DNA from: Escherichia phage vB_EcoP_HC-25922
DNA length: 64,000 nt
Sequence record: OQ555404.1
Strand: one strand, 5' to 3'
Shown: positions 6,596-59,471 of the stretch, piece after piece
Layout of the letters: each line of letters opens with the position of its first letter
How positions within the stretch are numbered: position 1 is the stretch's first letter
The notes under the pieces: generated by a model
The model's input: only the letters and a program-made list of their open reading frames with translations
The model's database searches: none
Told to the model about the DNA's origin: nothing
Position numbers and translations under genes: made by a program

Positions 6596-8791
6596 ATGTC
6601 TAGAGAATTAATGCCCAAATCTGGGATAATGATGCCTCACGTGGTAGTTACTAGAGATGCCGCAGTTGTGGGTGTGTCTACAGTTGATGGCGTGGCAGGT
6701 GCTGTTAATTTAACAGATAAATATCTACAAAAGTCTGATGCTGAAGCAACATATCAAACGAAAGCAGAAGGGGCTACTAAGCAATATGTAACCGATGCTA
6801 TTAACCCTATTATGACAAATGCTCTGTTTAAAGATGACCCTTTTGTCAATAATGATACACCTATCCGCTCTGGTGGTGGTAACGGTGTTGAATCGGTAGA
6901 CATGATTAAAGTCACTCCTGAGAATAATATCAAACTGGGGAGCTATGCTTCTTCTGTTCAGGGGGTTGAGATTCATTCTGCTGGTCGTCTTCAGGTTGTT
7001 GATCAGAACGATTCTGGAGTCGAAACTAAATACCCGATATACTCCAAAAGGTATCGCCCGGAAGTTGAGGATTTACCTTTCGCTTCAATCGGTTCCTACG
7101 TCAAAGATTCCAAAGGACGCACTATTGGTGTAACTCGTACTGGTATCAACTCTGATATCAAACAACTTACCCAGAAGGTAACTTTCACTCAACCCGTTAC
7201 TGTTCCTGATGCAGTTGGTGATTATGATGCGGTTACTTTGAGACAGCTTCGAAACAGCGGTGGTGGTTCTGGTGGTCCTACAATGAGTGGAATTTCTAAC
7301 TTTGGGATTGGGGATTTTCATTTACGTGACAGCCGTGCTTTCATCCCAGCTTTTGAGGTAGTGTCTGATGGGCAGCTTTTGAATCGTGCTGACTACCCAG
7401 ATCTGTGGGCTTATGCACAATTATTGTCGCCTATAGAGGATTCAGAGTGGCTTTCTGACAAGTTTAAGCGTGGTCGGTACAGTACGGGGGATGGTACTAC
7501 AACCTTCCGTGTACCTGACAGAAACGGCATTCAGGCTGGTTCTGTACGCGCTCTATACGGTCGTGGTGATGGTGGGTCCAGTTCTGCTAACGGAGACATA
7601 TTCGAATCCGCCGCACCAAACATCTGGGCGCGGACGGCAAGCTACTCCGGTTCCAGCTATGCACAGGTTTTTGGTGATATAGCGCAGGGTGCCTTCGTAG
7701 CGGATAACACGCTGTTCCCTGCTGCTGCTGGTGATGCTATCCCAGATACAGGCGCAATCGCTATCTCTGGGCGCTATAACACACTGACCTTTGACGCATC
7801 TCGTTCAAGCCCTATTTATGGCGGGTCCGTTGATGAGATTATGGGTCGTAACTTTGTAGGTGTTTGGACTATCCGTGCTCATGGTGGTTTTACTGCTGCT
7901 AACACCTCTTGGTCTGTTATTAACAGTGATGCAAACCGTCCTGCTGGTGGAACTAGGGTAACTAGCGGTTCAGTTGTTTCTGAATATAAAATAGGTTCAG
8001 AAGTAGAAGCCTCTACTACGCTCCAAACTGATGCTTATATCGACGGAGCTTATTATGGGATTATCAATGTTTATAATAAAACCAAAGGAGTTACCAAGCA
8101 ATTAGCTTTTGACGATTCTGGAACCCTGAACTCTGATAGATATGTTGCTCGGTCTAGAACATTGATGTCTTGGAATGAAACAGGAAGTCGCAGAGGGACG
8201 TTTTCTATAGACAACCAAGGGGTTGGTGCTAACTACTCTTTTAACTCTATACTGAGTGCTTCCCAAGCATCCCAAGGTGGATACAAAACTACTACCCATG
8301 TAGGGATGATTCACAATGATGCTGGATCTTTTGCTGATTCCTGTTGGCATGTTTCGGGAGATGAAGACAACAAATATGGTTGTCGTTTAACTCTCCGACC
8401 AAACAGGAACGAGATTTACTACTACACTTGGCAGCCAAGTTCAACCGGAACTTATACTCTTGCTATGAATCCTGTATCTGATGAAAAGTTGAAACATAAC
8501 ATCCAAGATATCTCTCCTGATGAAGCAATTCGTGCGATAAAAGGTTTGGATTTCAAATCGTTTGTGTACAACAATGATAATCAAGGAAGAACTCGTCGTG
8601 GTATCATTGCACAGCAGGCAGAGAAAGTTGAACCTCTTTATGTTAAAACTCGTAAATTCCATGACAACGATGGGGTAGAGCAGGAACAGAAAGAGTTGGA
8701 TGCAACTCCAATGCTTTTAGATACCATACAGGTTGTTCAAGATCTGCTGAAGCGTATTGAAGTTCTAGAAGCGAAGTTAGCAGAGAAGTGA
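6596..8791 (+). CDS. tail fiber/spike with tail-collar motif and C-terminal intramolecular chaperone (peptidase S74-like) domain
   Basis: YPDLWAYA...TFRVPDRNG collar-like motif; C-terminal SDEKLKHNI...GIIAQQ segment with Ser/Lys(+5) dyad typical of autocleaving fiber chaperones. Confidence 0.55.
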   Translation: MSRELMPKSGIMMPHVVVTRDAAVVGVSTVDGVAGAVNLTDKYLQKSDAEATYQTKAEGATKQYVTDAINPIMTNALFKDDPFVNNDTPIRSGGGNGVESVDMIKVTPENNIKLGSYASSVQGVEIHSAGRLQVVDQNDSGVETKYPIYSKRYRPEVEDLPFASIGSYVKDSKGRTIGVTRTGINSDIKQLTQKVTFTQPVTVPDAVGDYDAVTLRQLRNSGGGSGGPTMSGISNFGIGDFHLRDSRAFIPAFEVVSDGQLLNRADYPDLWAYAQLLSPIEDSEWLSDKFKRGRYSTGDGTTTFRVPDRNGIQAGSVRALYGRGDGGSSSANGDIFESAAPNIWARTASYSGSSYAQVFGDIAQGAFVADNTLFPAAAGDAIPDTGAIAISGRYNTLTFDASRSSPIYGGSVDEIMGRNFVGVWTIRAHGGFTAANTSWSVINSDANRPAGGTRVTSGSVVSEYKIGSEVEASTTLQTDAYIDGAYYGIINVYNKTKGVTKQLAFDDSGTLNSDRYVARSRTLMSWNETGSRRGTFSIDNQGVGANYSFNSILSASQASQGGYKTTTHVGMIHNDAGSFADSCWHVSGDEDNKYGCRLTLRPNRNEIYYYTWQPSSTGTYTLAMNPVSDEKLKHNIQDISPDEAIRAIKGLDFKSFVYNNDNQGRTRRGIIAQQAEKVEPLYVKTRKFHDNDGVEQEQKELDATPMLLDTIQVVQDLLKRIEVLEAKLAEK

Positions 8792-48830: not shown

Positions 48831-50864
48831 TTAGTGTTTACCTTTACAGTAATCTGAATTACAGATCACCCTGTTTTCTTTGTTCAGTGAGCAAGTTTCT
48901 GCATCACGCCACGGAATTTGTTTATAACAGACTGCACAAAACCCAATTGAAGTCCAGAGGGCTTTTGTAAACTCAGCTGTTCGTTGTCCATCGTAACTGA
49001 CAACTGTTTTTCGGAGAGAGGTTGACTTTTCTGGAAATGTCTCCGCTTTCTCAGCGGGTACCTCCTTTGGGGCATTCTTTGGACCATAAACAGAGATGGC
49101 ATAAGTATCACCACCACGTTTTTCCAAATACGAATTAGGAACATCTGCAAGTGTGATGTCCCCTGAACGTTTTGCTGAGCTGACCATTACAATCATACGG
49201 CTAAGCATACGTTCATCAACACGAACAGCTACTTCAGGACGACGTGGGTTGGTTGTGTCTACTGCTTTAGTCCAAATATAACCTTCAGATAGAGTAACAT
49301 TCTTTACTTTATCTTTGATTTCTTTGGAGCAGATATAACAAACGTCTTCACCACGAAGTTTACTCATTTCGTTGTCAAACTCGAAATCAGTCTTGACTTC
49401 ACCACAGATAGCACATACACCCAAAGGCACATCTTCTTCCTCTTCAGAGGTTTTAGATAACGCTTCGAAGCATTCTGGATGCCAGTATGCCTGATAAGCA
49501 AACACAGCCTTACGAGCATCTTTCCAGTCAATGTGCTTATCACAACCACCACAGTCACCATGAGAGTGAGATTCCCAGAACTTACGAGTGACTTCTACAC
49601 CATTCTTAGTGATGAAGGAGTCCTCTGCATCAAAAGGGATATCATCATCAAAATCAGCAGTAGTGCTTTGAGGCTCCTTATCTGTAGCATCAACAAACAG
49701 CCCTGAAGTTAGTACGAGGCGAATCATACTGTCCACTTCGGAGATACAAGCAATCGTCCCGCGATATACTACCTTTGGGTTTTCAAGAGCCTTAAGATAT
49801 TCATCTTTGGCTACGTTGTGAACATCCCCTTCGACATACTCTTGAGCTTTATCATCGTAGATGTAACCAACCATCTTACCACGATCTGTGTTGTTATAAG
49901 CATGGAACTCGTGAGGAATAATATCCACACGACCATCACGACGATAAGGAAGACCACGATCGGCAGCCAGTTTGTTCTGGTCTTCAATCGCTTTACGACG
50001 ACGAATGTCTCCGCTTGTCACGCCGGGCTTGTCGTCTTTGTTTCCGTAAATGTCGCTTGTGCTGCTGCTTGATTTGTTTGTCTGTTGGTTCTGATAAAGA
50101 GAGGAGTTCGAGTAATAGCCGCCCCAGCGACTCGTTACCGTAAAAACCGGAAGCGTGTGCTCCACCTCTTGAACCAGAGTCATACGACTGTTAGACACAT
50201 CAAAGATATACTCAGTTCCCACTTTACATTCGAAGTGGTCATTGATACGGTTCTTATGGGACTTAGAACGCTCTAAAATCCACATAAGCATAGCTTCTTC
50301 AGAAGCTCCAAACCAATCCAAACCACAGCGGGCTAGGTGGAAAGGACGCTCATCATTACGGATAATGTGAAGTGTGTTGTCTTTAGCATCATGCCAAATC
50401 AAAGTGAATGCACCATCCAGTTTTTGGATAGTCTCTGCTGCTCCAATGGTGTTAATTGAGTGGCAGATGTTTTCACTATCAACTTCGAAACGCTTACTGT
50501 CAGGAAGGAGATCTTGATCTAACAGGGTTCCATTATGAACCAGAGTAATATCCCCGTGAGTAAATGGGTGAGCATTTCGAGCATTGACAGCCCCACGAGT
50601 GGCATGTCGGCTGTGACCAACAATCCACGAAGGAGGAACTACGTAGTTCGTAAGCCCTTTGGTAATATTTGTATATTCTGTCTGGAGCATAAAAGCATAA
50701 GAAGGAAGAGCTTCTTTATAAGAGAAGACTTGCTTTTCACCTTTACGCTGACCAAACACACCAGTTGAGTGCTGTCCACGGAAAACACCAGCATACAGAA
50801 GTTGGTTGAAAATGTCCAAATCTGCTGAGGTCATGTTGCCGCCAGCTAATACGATACCACAAAT
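48831..50864 (-). CDS. class II (Ntn) glutamine amidotransferase domain protein with C-terminal Cys-rich region; probable AUU start
   Basis: NAHPF...HNG GATase II motif; extending in frame to ATT at 50862-50864 gives MCGIVLAGG with AGGTGG SD 8 nt upstream; multiple CxxC pairs in the C-terminal third. Confidence 0.55.
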   Translation of the reverse strand: MCGIVLAGGNMTSADLDIFNQLLYAGVFRGQHSTGVFGQRKGEKQVFSYKEALPSYAFMLQTEYTNITKGLTNYVVPPSWIVGHSRHATRGAVNARNAHPFTHGDITLVHNGTLLDQDLLPDSKRFEVDSENICHSINTIGAAETIQKLDGAFTLIWHDAKDNTLHIIRNDERPFHLARCGLDWFGASEEAMLMWILERSKSHKNRINDHFECKVGTEYIFDVSNSRMTLVQEVEHTLPVFTVTSRWGGYYSNSSLYQNQQTNKSSSSTSDIYGNKDDKPGVTSGDIRRRKAIEDQNKLAADRGLPYRRDGRVDIIPHEFHAYNNTDRGKMVGYIYDDKAQEYVEGDVHNVAKDEYLKALENPKVVYRGTIACISEVDSMIRLVLTSGLFVDATDKEPQSTTADFDDDIPFDAEDSFITKNGVEVTRKFWESHSHGDCGGCDKHIDWKDARKAVFAYQAYWHPECFEALSKTSEEEEDVPLGVCAICGEVKTDFEFDNEMSKLRGEDVCYICSKEIKDKVKNVTLSEGYIWTKAVDTTNPRRPEVAVRVDERMLSRMIVMVSSAKRSGDITLADVPNSYLEKRGGDTYAISVYGPKNAPKEVPAEKAETFPEKSTSLRKTVVSYDGQRTAEFTKALWTSIGFCAVCYKQIPWRDAETCSLNKENRVICNSDYCKGKH

Positions 50865-50941
50865 TTTCTAATCCACCTGAAGGGTAAACCCTTTCATCTA
50901 ATTAACCTTTAAATGCGCCCTGTATAAGAGCGCCCGTTGTG

Positions 50942-52042
50942 TTACAGCAGTCGTTCTAATTGCATTTCCAGATGGTCTGGAATATAACCAGTGACGTTAT
51001 CATCACTGCTACCTGATTCACGCATCAATGCAAACATGTGACGAATTTCACGAACCGTTGCGATTCGAGTGCTTTCAATCTGAGGGGTGTAGTAGGTCAT
51101 GATCTCTTCGTAGACACTGTTGGCATTACCGCGCACATATCCCAAGAAACCATAGAAGTCATTCATATCACGTAAGTTGATAAGGACTTCACCATCAGGG
51201 CCAGTCTGTTGCACACGAACACGACCAACCAAAGTTACAGATTGCTCACGACAGAAGAGAATATCACGAGCAAGACGATACCCTTCAGTGAGATCACTGT
51301 CTCTTGGAGTATAGTCTAGGGGTAGATGTTGAATCATAGGAGCGAAGCGCAGCTCATTCAACTTCTCAACATAAGCTTCATTGTCTAAATCTGCATATTC
51401 AACAGCCAGTTTCTTGAGAACCAAGAAGCGGTTGACCAGATTCAGAAGTTGGCTCTTTTTCCACTTCGGCTCTGAGATACGGAACTCAACAGAACCAAAT
51501 TGAGATAGAGGCAAAAGATTAAGGGAGGTATATTTATCCCAGCTATTAACAAGAGAGTGGAAGAAAGCTTCCCCGTCTCGGTTGAACGCTGACGAAGCAT
51601 TCATAACTTGTGCTTGAACGACAGCAAAAGCTGGACAGAAGTTGCTACGATAGCGATGGTATCCAGAACATTTGAACATCATCTTTTCATAGAACGTCCA
51701 TCCAAGAATAACTTTCTTAAGGATATTACTATCAGCGTCACGCATATCCATATGAACGTGAGTGGAGCAGCGCCAAGTTCCCTCGGCTCCAGAATCCTGT
51801 ACTGCTTCACTCAGATTGTTAATAGCACGAAGTAATTCTTCACCGTTGTAAGGTCGTGCACATACTAATTCACAACCATCACGAAGAGAGCCATCTTCAG
51901 TACAAACCCACATATCAGCGTCAATGTCAGTTGTACCTTCGACTTCTAACTCAATACCAACACCACACTGAAAAGCAATACTTGGATGCGGTTCAGATAA
52001 GCGAGGGTTACGGTATCCAAAAACTTGTGCTACGGTTGTCAT
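50942..52042 (-). CDS. amidoligase-family protein
   Basis: GVGIELEVEG and STHVHMDM motifs resemble the phage amidoligase family. Confidence 0.5.
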   Translation of the reverse strand: MTTVAQVFGYRNPRLSEPHPSIAFQCGVGIELEVEGTTDIDADMWVCTEDGSLRDGCELVCARPYNGEELLRAINNLSEAVQDSGAEGTWRCSTHVHMDMRDADSNILKKVILGWTFYEKMMFKCSGYHRYRSNFCPAFAVVQAQVMNASSAFNRDGEAFFHSLVNSWDKYTSLNLLPLSQFGSVEFRISEPKWKKSQLLNLVNRFLVLKKLAVEYADLDNEAYVEKLNELRFAPMIQHLPLDYTPRDSDLTEGYRLARDILFCREQSVTLVGRVRVQQTGPDGEVLINLRDMNDFYGFLGYVRGNANSVYEEIMTYYTPQIESTRIATVREIRHMFALMRESGSSDDNVTGYIPDHLEMQLERLL

Positions 52043-59144: not shown

Positions 59145-59471
59145 TCACCACTCCTTACCTGTTGTTGTCACAGAACCACCACACAGCTCACCACGGGAGA
59201 TGAAGTCATAACGTGACCAATCACCTTGGGTAGCCATATCACGATCTGCATAAGCTTTCTCGTCAACAGCACCGCCATTGGAACAAGAAGCACCAGCATA
59301 ACGCATATCAATTTCACCACTAGGAATCTTCTCCCCGCTATGCCAACGGGAAACGCATACACCCTCTACAGCTACTGCACACCACCCATCAGGACGATGC
59401 TGTACACAGCCTGTAAGAGCTACACAGGCGATAAAGATACAGGTTAAGGTAATTACACCACCCCAGCTCAT
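59145..59471 (-). CDS. putative lipoprotein, Cys-rich
   Basis: signal peptide with lipobox LTGC, then a Cys-rich soluble part. Confidence 0.4.
   Translation of the reverse strand: MSWGGVITLTCIFIACVALTGCVQHRPDGWCAVAVEGVCVSRWHSGEKIPSGEIDMRYAGASCSNGGAVDEKAYADRDMATQGDWSRYDFISRGELCGGSVTTTGKEW

Follow-up and report, generated by a model that had tools for sequence, protein, structure and literature searches.

Where does translation begin in a phage gene whose product needs a cysteine as its very first residue, when no canonical start codon lies directly before that cysteine? The question is raised by a glutamine amidotransferase gene of Escherichia phage vB_EcoP_HC-25922 (OQ555404.1), in a stretch of 64,000 nucleotides (nt) that we call the window and in which all positions are counted. 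The longest open reading frame (ORF) of the gene with an ATG, GTG or TTG start spans 48831..50834 (667 amino acids), vs. 677 codons when the same frame is read from an ATT ten codons upstream. We consider that the gene (48831-50864, minus strand) is very probably translated from this AUU, at 50864-50862. The features of the start region are these:

48831..50864 (-), amidotransferase gene read from ATT, 677 codons plus stop
50873..50878 (-), Shine-Dalgarno-like AGGTGG, 8 nt ahead of the ATT
50868..50870 (-), in-frame TAG stop (from sequence and translation), two codons ahead of the Cys codon
50865..50867 (-), AAA codon (from sequence), between TAG and ATT
50862..50864 (-), ATT (AUU), the putative start, with no other near-cognate codon from the in-frame TAG to Cys
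50859..50861 (-), TGT, codon of the catalytic Cys1, an invariant alignment column (C1)
50832..50834 (-), ATG, the first canonical start, codon 11 of the ATT model and the start in the RefSeq and SU7 annotation

The start region

On the minus strand the frame translates as stop-K-I-C-G-I-V-L-A-G-G-N-M-T-S: after TGT come GGT ATC GTA TTA GCT GGC GGC AAC, then ATG ACC TCA, where the ATG at 50834 opens the peptide MTSADLD. Under the ATT model the N-terminal peptide is CGIVLAGGNMTSADLDIFNQLLYAGVFR. A preliminary description had given this reading of the frame, which proved exact, and had placed a Shine-Dalgarno (SD) sequence AGGTGG 8 nt ahead of the ATT at 50862-50864; the SD was confirmed at 50878-50873 as one of moderate strength, separated from ATT by the spacer ATTAGAAA. 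Its predicted duplex with the 16S rRNA 3' end has an energy of -5.9 kcal/mol, vs. -4.8 kcal/mol for the GGCGG ahead of ATG 50834, making AGGTGG a decent though not outstanding SD.

Only AAA and ATT stand between the TAG and the Cys codon, an arrangement conserved across relatives, so no canonical start is possible before Cys; the in-frame TAG moreover excludes an upstream canonical start or a propeptide, barring read-through of the stop. Two of the features that mark AUU-initiated genes of the infC and pcnB kind are found here, namely an SD at suitable spacing (AGGTGG, 8-nt spacer, with the duplex energy given above) and an AUU at the required start of the protein with no canonical alternative.

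A class II glutamine amidotransferase

Pfam matched the product to GATase_6 (2.7e-14; 53.7 bits, cut-off 27), to GATase_7 at its cut-off, and also to GATase_4. The GATase domain takes up approximately the first 230 residues and is followed by a Cys-rich C-terminal region of approximately 440 residues. A search of PDB with the single amidotransferase sequence gave no match; a family profile built from 14 phage homologues (alignment A1) matched E. coli GlmS (1xff, E = 6e-17), PurF, GFAT, AsnB, and plant and human enzymes. In these matches the first residue of the family, the Cys whose codon directly follows ATT, falls on residue 1 of the mature GlmS and PurF of E. coli, and GlmS R26, N98-G99 and D123 have their counterparts in the RG, HNG and VDSE motifs. 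The residues invariant in A1 are C1, G2, R28, G29, N110, G111 and D128, among them the equivalents of GlmS catalytic or binding residues (R28, N110-G111 and D128); the Cys1 column is also invariant in a further alignment (A3). As judged by these alignments, the protein is a class II (N-terminal nucleophile, Ntn) glutamine amidotransferase. Enzymes of this class use the free alpha-amino group and the thiol of Cys1.

Because Pfam found no SIS domain in residues 250-676, where there was only a sub-threshold LIM-like Cys-rich match, the name 'L-glutamine-D-fructose-6-phosphate aminotransferase' (GlmS) that many records carry is an unsupported misnomer. Residues ~250-676 (window 48831-50100, minus strand) contain several CxxC...CxxC/HxxC clusters and no known domain.

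Conservation of the proposed ATT start

The region is 100% identical to that of Escherichia phages vB_EcoP-101114UKE3, IME267 and MLP3 and 99.9% identical to that of Bas87 (701 nt compared); by these matches the window belongs to a phiEco32-like coliphage (a podophage) of the Gordonclarkvirinae, genus Suseptimavirus. We compared 12 phiEco32-like genomes (the window, SU7, Bas87, UKE3, EP335, NJ01, phiEco32, SU10, LAMP, ECBP2, KBNP1711 and one metagenomic contig) spanning three genera: Suseptimavirus, Nieuwekanaalvirus and Kuravirus. ATT-TGT was kept in 12 of 12, with the 45 nt ahead of the start identical in all, and ATT, SD and TAG stop were invariant in the Gordonclarkvirinae compared. Among the three genera the same genes diverge by 39-45% at third codon positions. 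Since ATT-TGT and the leader are found in every phiEco32-like genome read, they are not a chance feature or sequencing error of the window, and the persistence of ATT across three genera at this third-position divergence argues for a weak start that has been tolerated or selected rather than a recent lesion. Two more distant sequences, Aeromonas phage BUCT695 and contig L197, have ATT behind the same type of leader (the SD being AGGCGG in BUCT695).

The canonical start inside the gene has no such history. Codon 11 is ATG only in the group of the window, SU7 and ECBP2; in Nieuwekanaalvirus and Kuravirus it is either CTC (EP335, KBNP1711) or CTG (NJ01, phiEco32, LAMP). Distinct variant codons in the nine-codon stretch that runs from Cys through Asn number 7 synonymous vs. 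1 non-synonymous, and with BUCT695 added, third positions hold 10 of the 12 changed bases; these nine codons between ATT and ATG 50834 carry a coding signature in this frame. The starts annotated for NJ01 and EP335, 113 and 57 codons downstream, would delete conserved catalytic residues.

In more distant phages the codon before Cys is mostly ATG itself: it is so in Proteus phage 3H10_20, Cronobacter phages 009 and GAP52, Salmonella phage SE131, Aeromonas phage LAh_8, Pseudoalteromonas phage RIO-1, Pseudomonas phages Lyrsu03 and LUZ24, a Vibrio phage and Arthrobacter phage Wheelbite, while Citrobacter phage CVT22 has TTG there. The preliminary description had argued that a class II amidotransferase needs Cys as residue 1, that translation starts at AUU, and that the ATG model would give an inactive enzyme, and had suggested the orthologs' codon before Cys as a check. 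The Pfam and profile results agree on the enzyme class; most distant phages do have ATG at the Cys-preceding codon (86 of the 124 distinct leaders described below); orthologs without the Cys-Gly-Ile N-terminus did not turn up, Cys being invariant; and the full retention of ATT-TGT, the lack of conservation of ATG 50834 and the coding character of the nine codons all fall on the side of AUU.

Proposed use of the AUU codon

In the mechanism we propose, AGGUGG would position the 30S subunit from 8 nt upstream and initiator formylmethionyl-tRNA (fMet-tRNA) would read the near-cognate AUU; deformylase and methionine aminopeptidase would then strip the Met, Cys being a small second residue, such that the mature protein would begin at Cys1, the N-terminal nucleophile. 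Placement of the 30S subunit by an SD and initiation with fMet-tRNA are established features of bacterial translation, and methionine aminopeptidase accepts Cys at position 2. Because AUU is weak, and is discriminated against by initiation factor 3 (IF3), low and tunable synthesis of the enzyme would be expected. AUU is the established start of E. coli infC and pcnB, used there at a reduced level (PMC3592434; 10.1101/063800).

Several points weigh against this reading. Expression from AUU was lower than from AUG by a factor of 6-8 in one reporter system (PMC3592434) and reached 0.02-3% of AUG in another (10.1101/063800), and with a moderate SD joined to so weak a codon very little protein may be made. 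The literature searched gave no experimentally determined N-terminus of the amidotransferase and no mapping of its initiation site. The SU10 protein table lists an expected mass of 63.8 kDa, less than 677 residues would weigh (PMC4281155), and for that reason N-terminal peptides may not have been sought. Finally, with a leader that is fully invariant, conservation alone cannot tell an AUU start from other functions located there.

Constraint, hairpin and mini-ORF in the leader

Three elements of the leader bear on how the AUU might be reached:

50862..50911 (-), 50-nt leader (TAAAGGTTAATTAG...AGAAAATT), identical across three genera
50880..50893 (-), small predicted hairpin AAGGG-TTTA-CCCTT, -4.6 kcal/mol, 3' end at -16 from the start codon
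50868..50897 (-), nine-codon mini-ORF ATG AAA GGG TTT ACC CTT CAG GTG GAT TAG (MKGFTLQVD*), from sequence

From synonymous-site rates, the chance of 50 unchanged nt is approximately 1e-11 to 1e-13 (recalculated from an estimate made for 58 nt), and the constraint on the leader exceeds what a plain SD would need. The hairpin (50880-50893) ends 1 nt before the SD; its loop is TTAA in BUCT695, and in L197 its stem is one pair longer (AAGGGA/TCCCTT). An insertion of 16 nt, ACCCTTCAGGTGGATT, sets the ATT lineage apart from the ATG-bearing Cronobacter phage GAP52, and supplies both a new SD and the hairpin's 3' arm. The mini-ORF shares the frame of the amidotransferase, covers hairpin and SD, and ends 3 nt ahead of ATT.

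Taken over its full 126 nt, the leader has no unusual degree of structure (z = -0.98), local hairpins alone being notable; an Rfam search around it with a permissive cut-off returned two chance matches below threshold and nothing else; and a scan for sigma-70 promoters and terminators showed nothing relevant in it. The leader matches the phiEco32 gp36 promoter consensus tAATGTAtA poorly (consensus from PMC8948821), and for SU10 its authors report neither a promoter nor a terminator at this place. In Grimontviridae-like relatives (L006-L010, L027, L031) a TTAAATGTAAA-like motif is conserved ~12-25 nt before the ATG start; it resembles the same gp36 promoter element (PMC8948821), and its counterpart in the window is TTAAAGGTTAATTAG.

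Alternative readings of the start

Initiation at AUU could itself come about in more than one way, and ribosomes might use the codon mainly by re-initiating after the mini-ORF (50897-50868), terminating at the UAG 3 nt upstream and being held by the SD that lies inside the mini-ORF. The geometry UAG AAA AUU is that of the E. coli thrS-infC junction, UAA GGU AUU, where about half of initiation was estimated to be re-initiation and the other half de novo (PMC3592434). The mini-ORF is also still open and in frame in BUCT695, as MKGLTLQAD*, despite two base changes, and in L197 the upstream gene itself crosses the hairpin and SD stretch to end with TAG TAA directly before ATT. Yet the mini-ORF has a weak SD of its own (-3.4 kcal/mol), which BUCT695 lacks, and with the leader invariant in Gordonclarkvirinae, constraint on the peptide is indistinguishable from constraint on the RNA. 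Across the family, an upstream ORF ends beside the start no more frequently for ATT/ATC (16 of 34) than for canonical starts (44 of 93), and long upstream ORFs ending there are rarer (5 of 34 vs. 36 of 93); coupling of translation to an upstream ORF is thus not supported as a trait of ATT/ATC starts in general. We regard re-initiation as a reasonable sub-mechanism for this lineage, though unlikely to be the main route and not general in the family.

The remaining readings dispense with AUU initiation altogether. Starting at ATG 50834, the protein would lack its first ten residues and, no longer an amidotransferase, would have to work through its C-terminal part. That ATG is the first canonical start, has the weak GGCGG upstream (-4.8 kcal/mol), and is the start annotated in SU7 and RefSeq, but its replacement by CTC or CTG in Kuravirus and Nieuwekanaalvirus, the coding mode of evolution of the nine codons ahead of it, the family-wide invariance of Cys1 and other catalytic residues, and the homologues that place ATG directly before Cys leave this start very improbable. 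We give equally little credence to a start at the mini-ORF's ATG (50897) with read-through of UAG and self-removal of a 12-residue propeptide to expose Cys1, in the manner of Bacillus subtilis PurF. The mini-ORF is in frame and its length resembles that of the 11-residue PurF propeptide, and bacterial PurF-like matches do follow a propeptide route, reading ...E|C where no start codon adjoins the Cys. Such propeptide-type relatives, however, have Glu at -1 and no stop, whereas the open frame with an upstream start codon that marks the class is interrupted here by TAG two codons before Cys; L197 has two consecutive stops (TAG TAA) before ATT; the window encodes no tRNA and hence no suppressor; and UAG read-through is rare in wild E. 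coli. Nor is read-through a common mechanism, since 27 of the 31 ATT/ATC homologues lack an in-frame upstream canonical start. Finally, decay of the gene through loss of its start codon, or a sequencing or assembly error at ATT, would have in its favor only that non-canonical starts are generally rare. The gene is under purifying selection, its ATT is identical in genomes of three genera that were sequenced independently, and the protein was detected by mass spectrometry in SU10, all of which puts the chance of either close to nil; the conservation across genera together with the SU10 proteomics refutes this reading.

Start codons and SD-adjacent hairpins across the family

Two IMG/VR scans and GenBank loci yielded 124 distinct leader/N-terminus combinations. 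The codon before Cys1 was ATG in 86, ATT in 21, ATC in 10 and TTG in 7 (one GTG before Cys was found separately in a genome scan); because the O4-like clade was the target of the second scan, the 25% share of ATT/ATC is not an unbiased frequency. Among the 31 ATT/ATC leaders, 27 have no ATG, GTG or TTG between the upstream in-frame stop and Cys. Members with ATT or ATC include Pseudomonas phage O4 (L014), Aeromonas phage BUCT695 (L021), L040, L070, L079, L083, L092, L097, L098, L104, L112-L147, L171, L176, L191, L193 and L197. Bacterial contigs from metagenome-assembled genomes (L199-L208) carry PurF-like relatives with Glu-Cys (GAA/GAG TGY) and a frame open upstream.

We scored an SD-adjacent hairpin as a stem of at least 4 bp with a loop of 3-8 nt and a predicted free energy of -3 kcal/mol or lower. 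Over all distinct leaders, hairpins with their 3' end at -22 to -12 were present in 20 of the 31 ATT/ATC leaders, vs. 3 of 86 ATG and 0 of 7 TTG leaders (Fisher P = 6e-12, ATT/ATC vs. ATG). With the 3' end at -17 to -13, the association held for clusters at 60% identity (11 of 18 ATT/ATC vs. 0 of 62 canonical, Fisher P = 3e-9) and for leaders first met in the second scan, with the criterion fixed beforehand (5 of 15 vs. 0 of 33, Fisher P = 0.0018); none of these tests is properly phylogenetic. The 20 ATT/ATC hairpins have 14 different stem sequences, and 19 of them have the 3' end at -14 to -16, the exception being L097 (-12 in its best-energy form), while the three in ATG leaders end at -12, -20 and -21. 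Besides the window, carriers include L014, L040, L070, L079, L092, L097, L098, L104, L130, L131, L141 and L171. Approximately one third of ATT/ATC leaders have no hairpin, some of these with very strong SDs. The SD itself differs less: between ATT/ATC and ATG leaders neither its core length (P = 0.11) nor its spacing (P = 0.40) was significantly different, and its duplex energy was modestly stronger for ATT/ATC (-7.9 vs. -6.7 kcal/mol, P = 0.002).

Two sister pairs compared at the amidotransferase N-termini (alignments A4 and A5), each with proteins 99.5% identical, differ in the whole arrangement: O4 (L014) has hairpin, GGAGG and ATC, vs. GGAGG and TTG with no hairpin in a PA11-like contig (L103); L141 has hairpin, GGAGG and ATT, vs. 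AGAGG and TTG with no hairpin in L140, the flanks of the second pair being otherwise almost identical apart from an indel of ~19 nt. Going by these two pairs, the module can apparently be exchanged as a cassette.

We raise tentatively, as a possibility we hold to be somewhat less probable than its opposite, that the hairpin next to the SD is a functional partner of the weak AUU or AUC start, in a module composed of hairpin, 0-2 nt, SD, ~8 nt, AUH and UGY. Speculatively, the hairpin may stack on or stabilize the SD:anti-SD helix, or act as a standby site, an operator or an mRNA stabilizer, and near-cognate initiation might in such a scheme be made workable or regulatable. Hairpin-SD modules also precede some canonical-start ORFs in the window, e.g., the ATG at 59471 (-), so the arrangement is not exclusive to AUH starts in this phage. 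No description of an association between hairpins and near-cognate starts was found in the literature searched.

Within the window, a hairpin directly before an SD was seen at 59471 (-) and at 6596 (+). The former reads GCCGCCGTAAGGCG-CTTCAGGAGGG-ATC-ATG, and its CTTCAGG(A/T)GG resembles the amidotransferase leader.

Gene neighborhood and existing annotation

The amidotransferase belongs to a cluster with conserved order by Pfam: COOH-NH2 ligase (PF14395), a hypothetical gene, Amidoligase_2 (PF12224), the amidotransferase, two small ORFs, and a RimK-like ATP-grasp protein. Directly upstream lie:

50942..52042 (-), Amidoligase_2 family gene (Pfam PF12224)
50915..50933 (-), predicted hairpin GCGCUCU-UAUAC-AGGGCGC, directly past the amidoligase stop

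At the position of this second hairpin (50915-50933) phiEco32 and EP335 carry GTGCCTC/GGGGCAC, compensatory changes as judged by eye. It did not reach the criteria of our terminator scan and has no proper T tract; some GenBank records annotate a terminator within the 701-nt match that spans the region. In SU10 the amidotransferase was seen by mass spectrometry (9 peptides), among early gene products (PMC4281155), and the SU10 supplement gives gp85 as 677 residues.

The ATT start is not new to the databases. The coding sequence (CDS) is already annotated from ATT in phiEco32 (phi32_83, NC_010324), SU10 (SU10_085), LAMP (phiL_083) and Bas87 (Bas87_0079). As phi32_83 has the only ATT start among the 128 CDS of phiEco32 (112 ATG, 13 GTG, 2 TTG), this was probably a deliberate choice of curation. 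Elsewhere, SU7 and RefSeq Suseptimavirus 101114UKE3 start the CDS at ATG 50834, 10 codons late; the BUCT695 record uses a downstream ATG; the RefSeq CDS of Pseudomonas phage O4 starts 36 codons late; and LAh_8 leaves the gene unannotated. The late starts of the EP335 and NJ01 records (57 and 113 codons) are the product of annotators limited to canonical starts. The proposed AUU start of this amidotransferase is therefore not new, being embodied in the public annotation of the type phage, and the annotation is inconsistent; no text on the AUU start of phage amidotransferases was found in the literature searched.

Implications

Models with a late start lose the catalytic nucleophile, and functional or structural studies of the phage amidoligase/amidotransferase/ATP-grasp cluster would be misled by them. 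Because Cys1 fixes the true start to one position, the family of this N-terminal-nucleophile enzyme is a natural ruler for non-canonical initiation in phages, and by that ruler AUU and AUC starts in phage genes are far commoner than annotation suggests (31 of 124 distinct leaders, in a clade-enriched sample). The remaining interest is in the conserved 50-nt leader and the hairpin/AUH association, which is statistically solid at the level tested and which, if functional, would provide a simple, testable cis-element for near-cognate initiation in bacteria.

Comparison with known systems

The closest counterparts are the orthologs phi32_83, SU10_085, phiL_083 and Bas87_0079, which share the leader and the ATT with the gene of the window and show no substantive difference. 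E. coli infC and pcnB, the two chromosomal genes whose AUU start is confirmed, likewise have the AUU behind an SD, and the weak codon limits or regulates their expression (PMC3592434; 10.1101/063800); the infC AUU also lies 3 nt past the stop of the preceding frame, as in the phage gene (PMC3592434). The infC AUU, however, is the sensor of an autoregulatory loop of IF3, whereas no such loop is evident for the phage gene, and unlike in infC and pcnB the phage start has no freedom of position, since Cys must be residue 1, and no neighboring canonical codon could substitute.

As to the protein, the glutaminase domains of E. coli GlmS and PurF share with it the conserved Arg, the Asn-Gly oxyanion hole and the Asp, and their Cys1, exposed by Met removal, aligns with the phage Cys, which would be exposed likewise, but their genes start with ATG-TGT rather than ATT-TGT, and the phage protein has a Cys-rich C-terminal region in place of an SIS or phosphoribosyltransferase domain. 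Processing of the Bacillus subtilis PurF type has the same goal as the phage arrangement, a free N-terminal Cys, which it attains by starting at an ATG further upstream and autocatalytically removing a propeptide whose last residue is Glu, whereas the phage gene has a stop two codons before the Cys.

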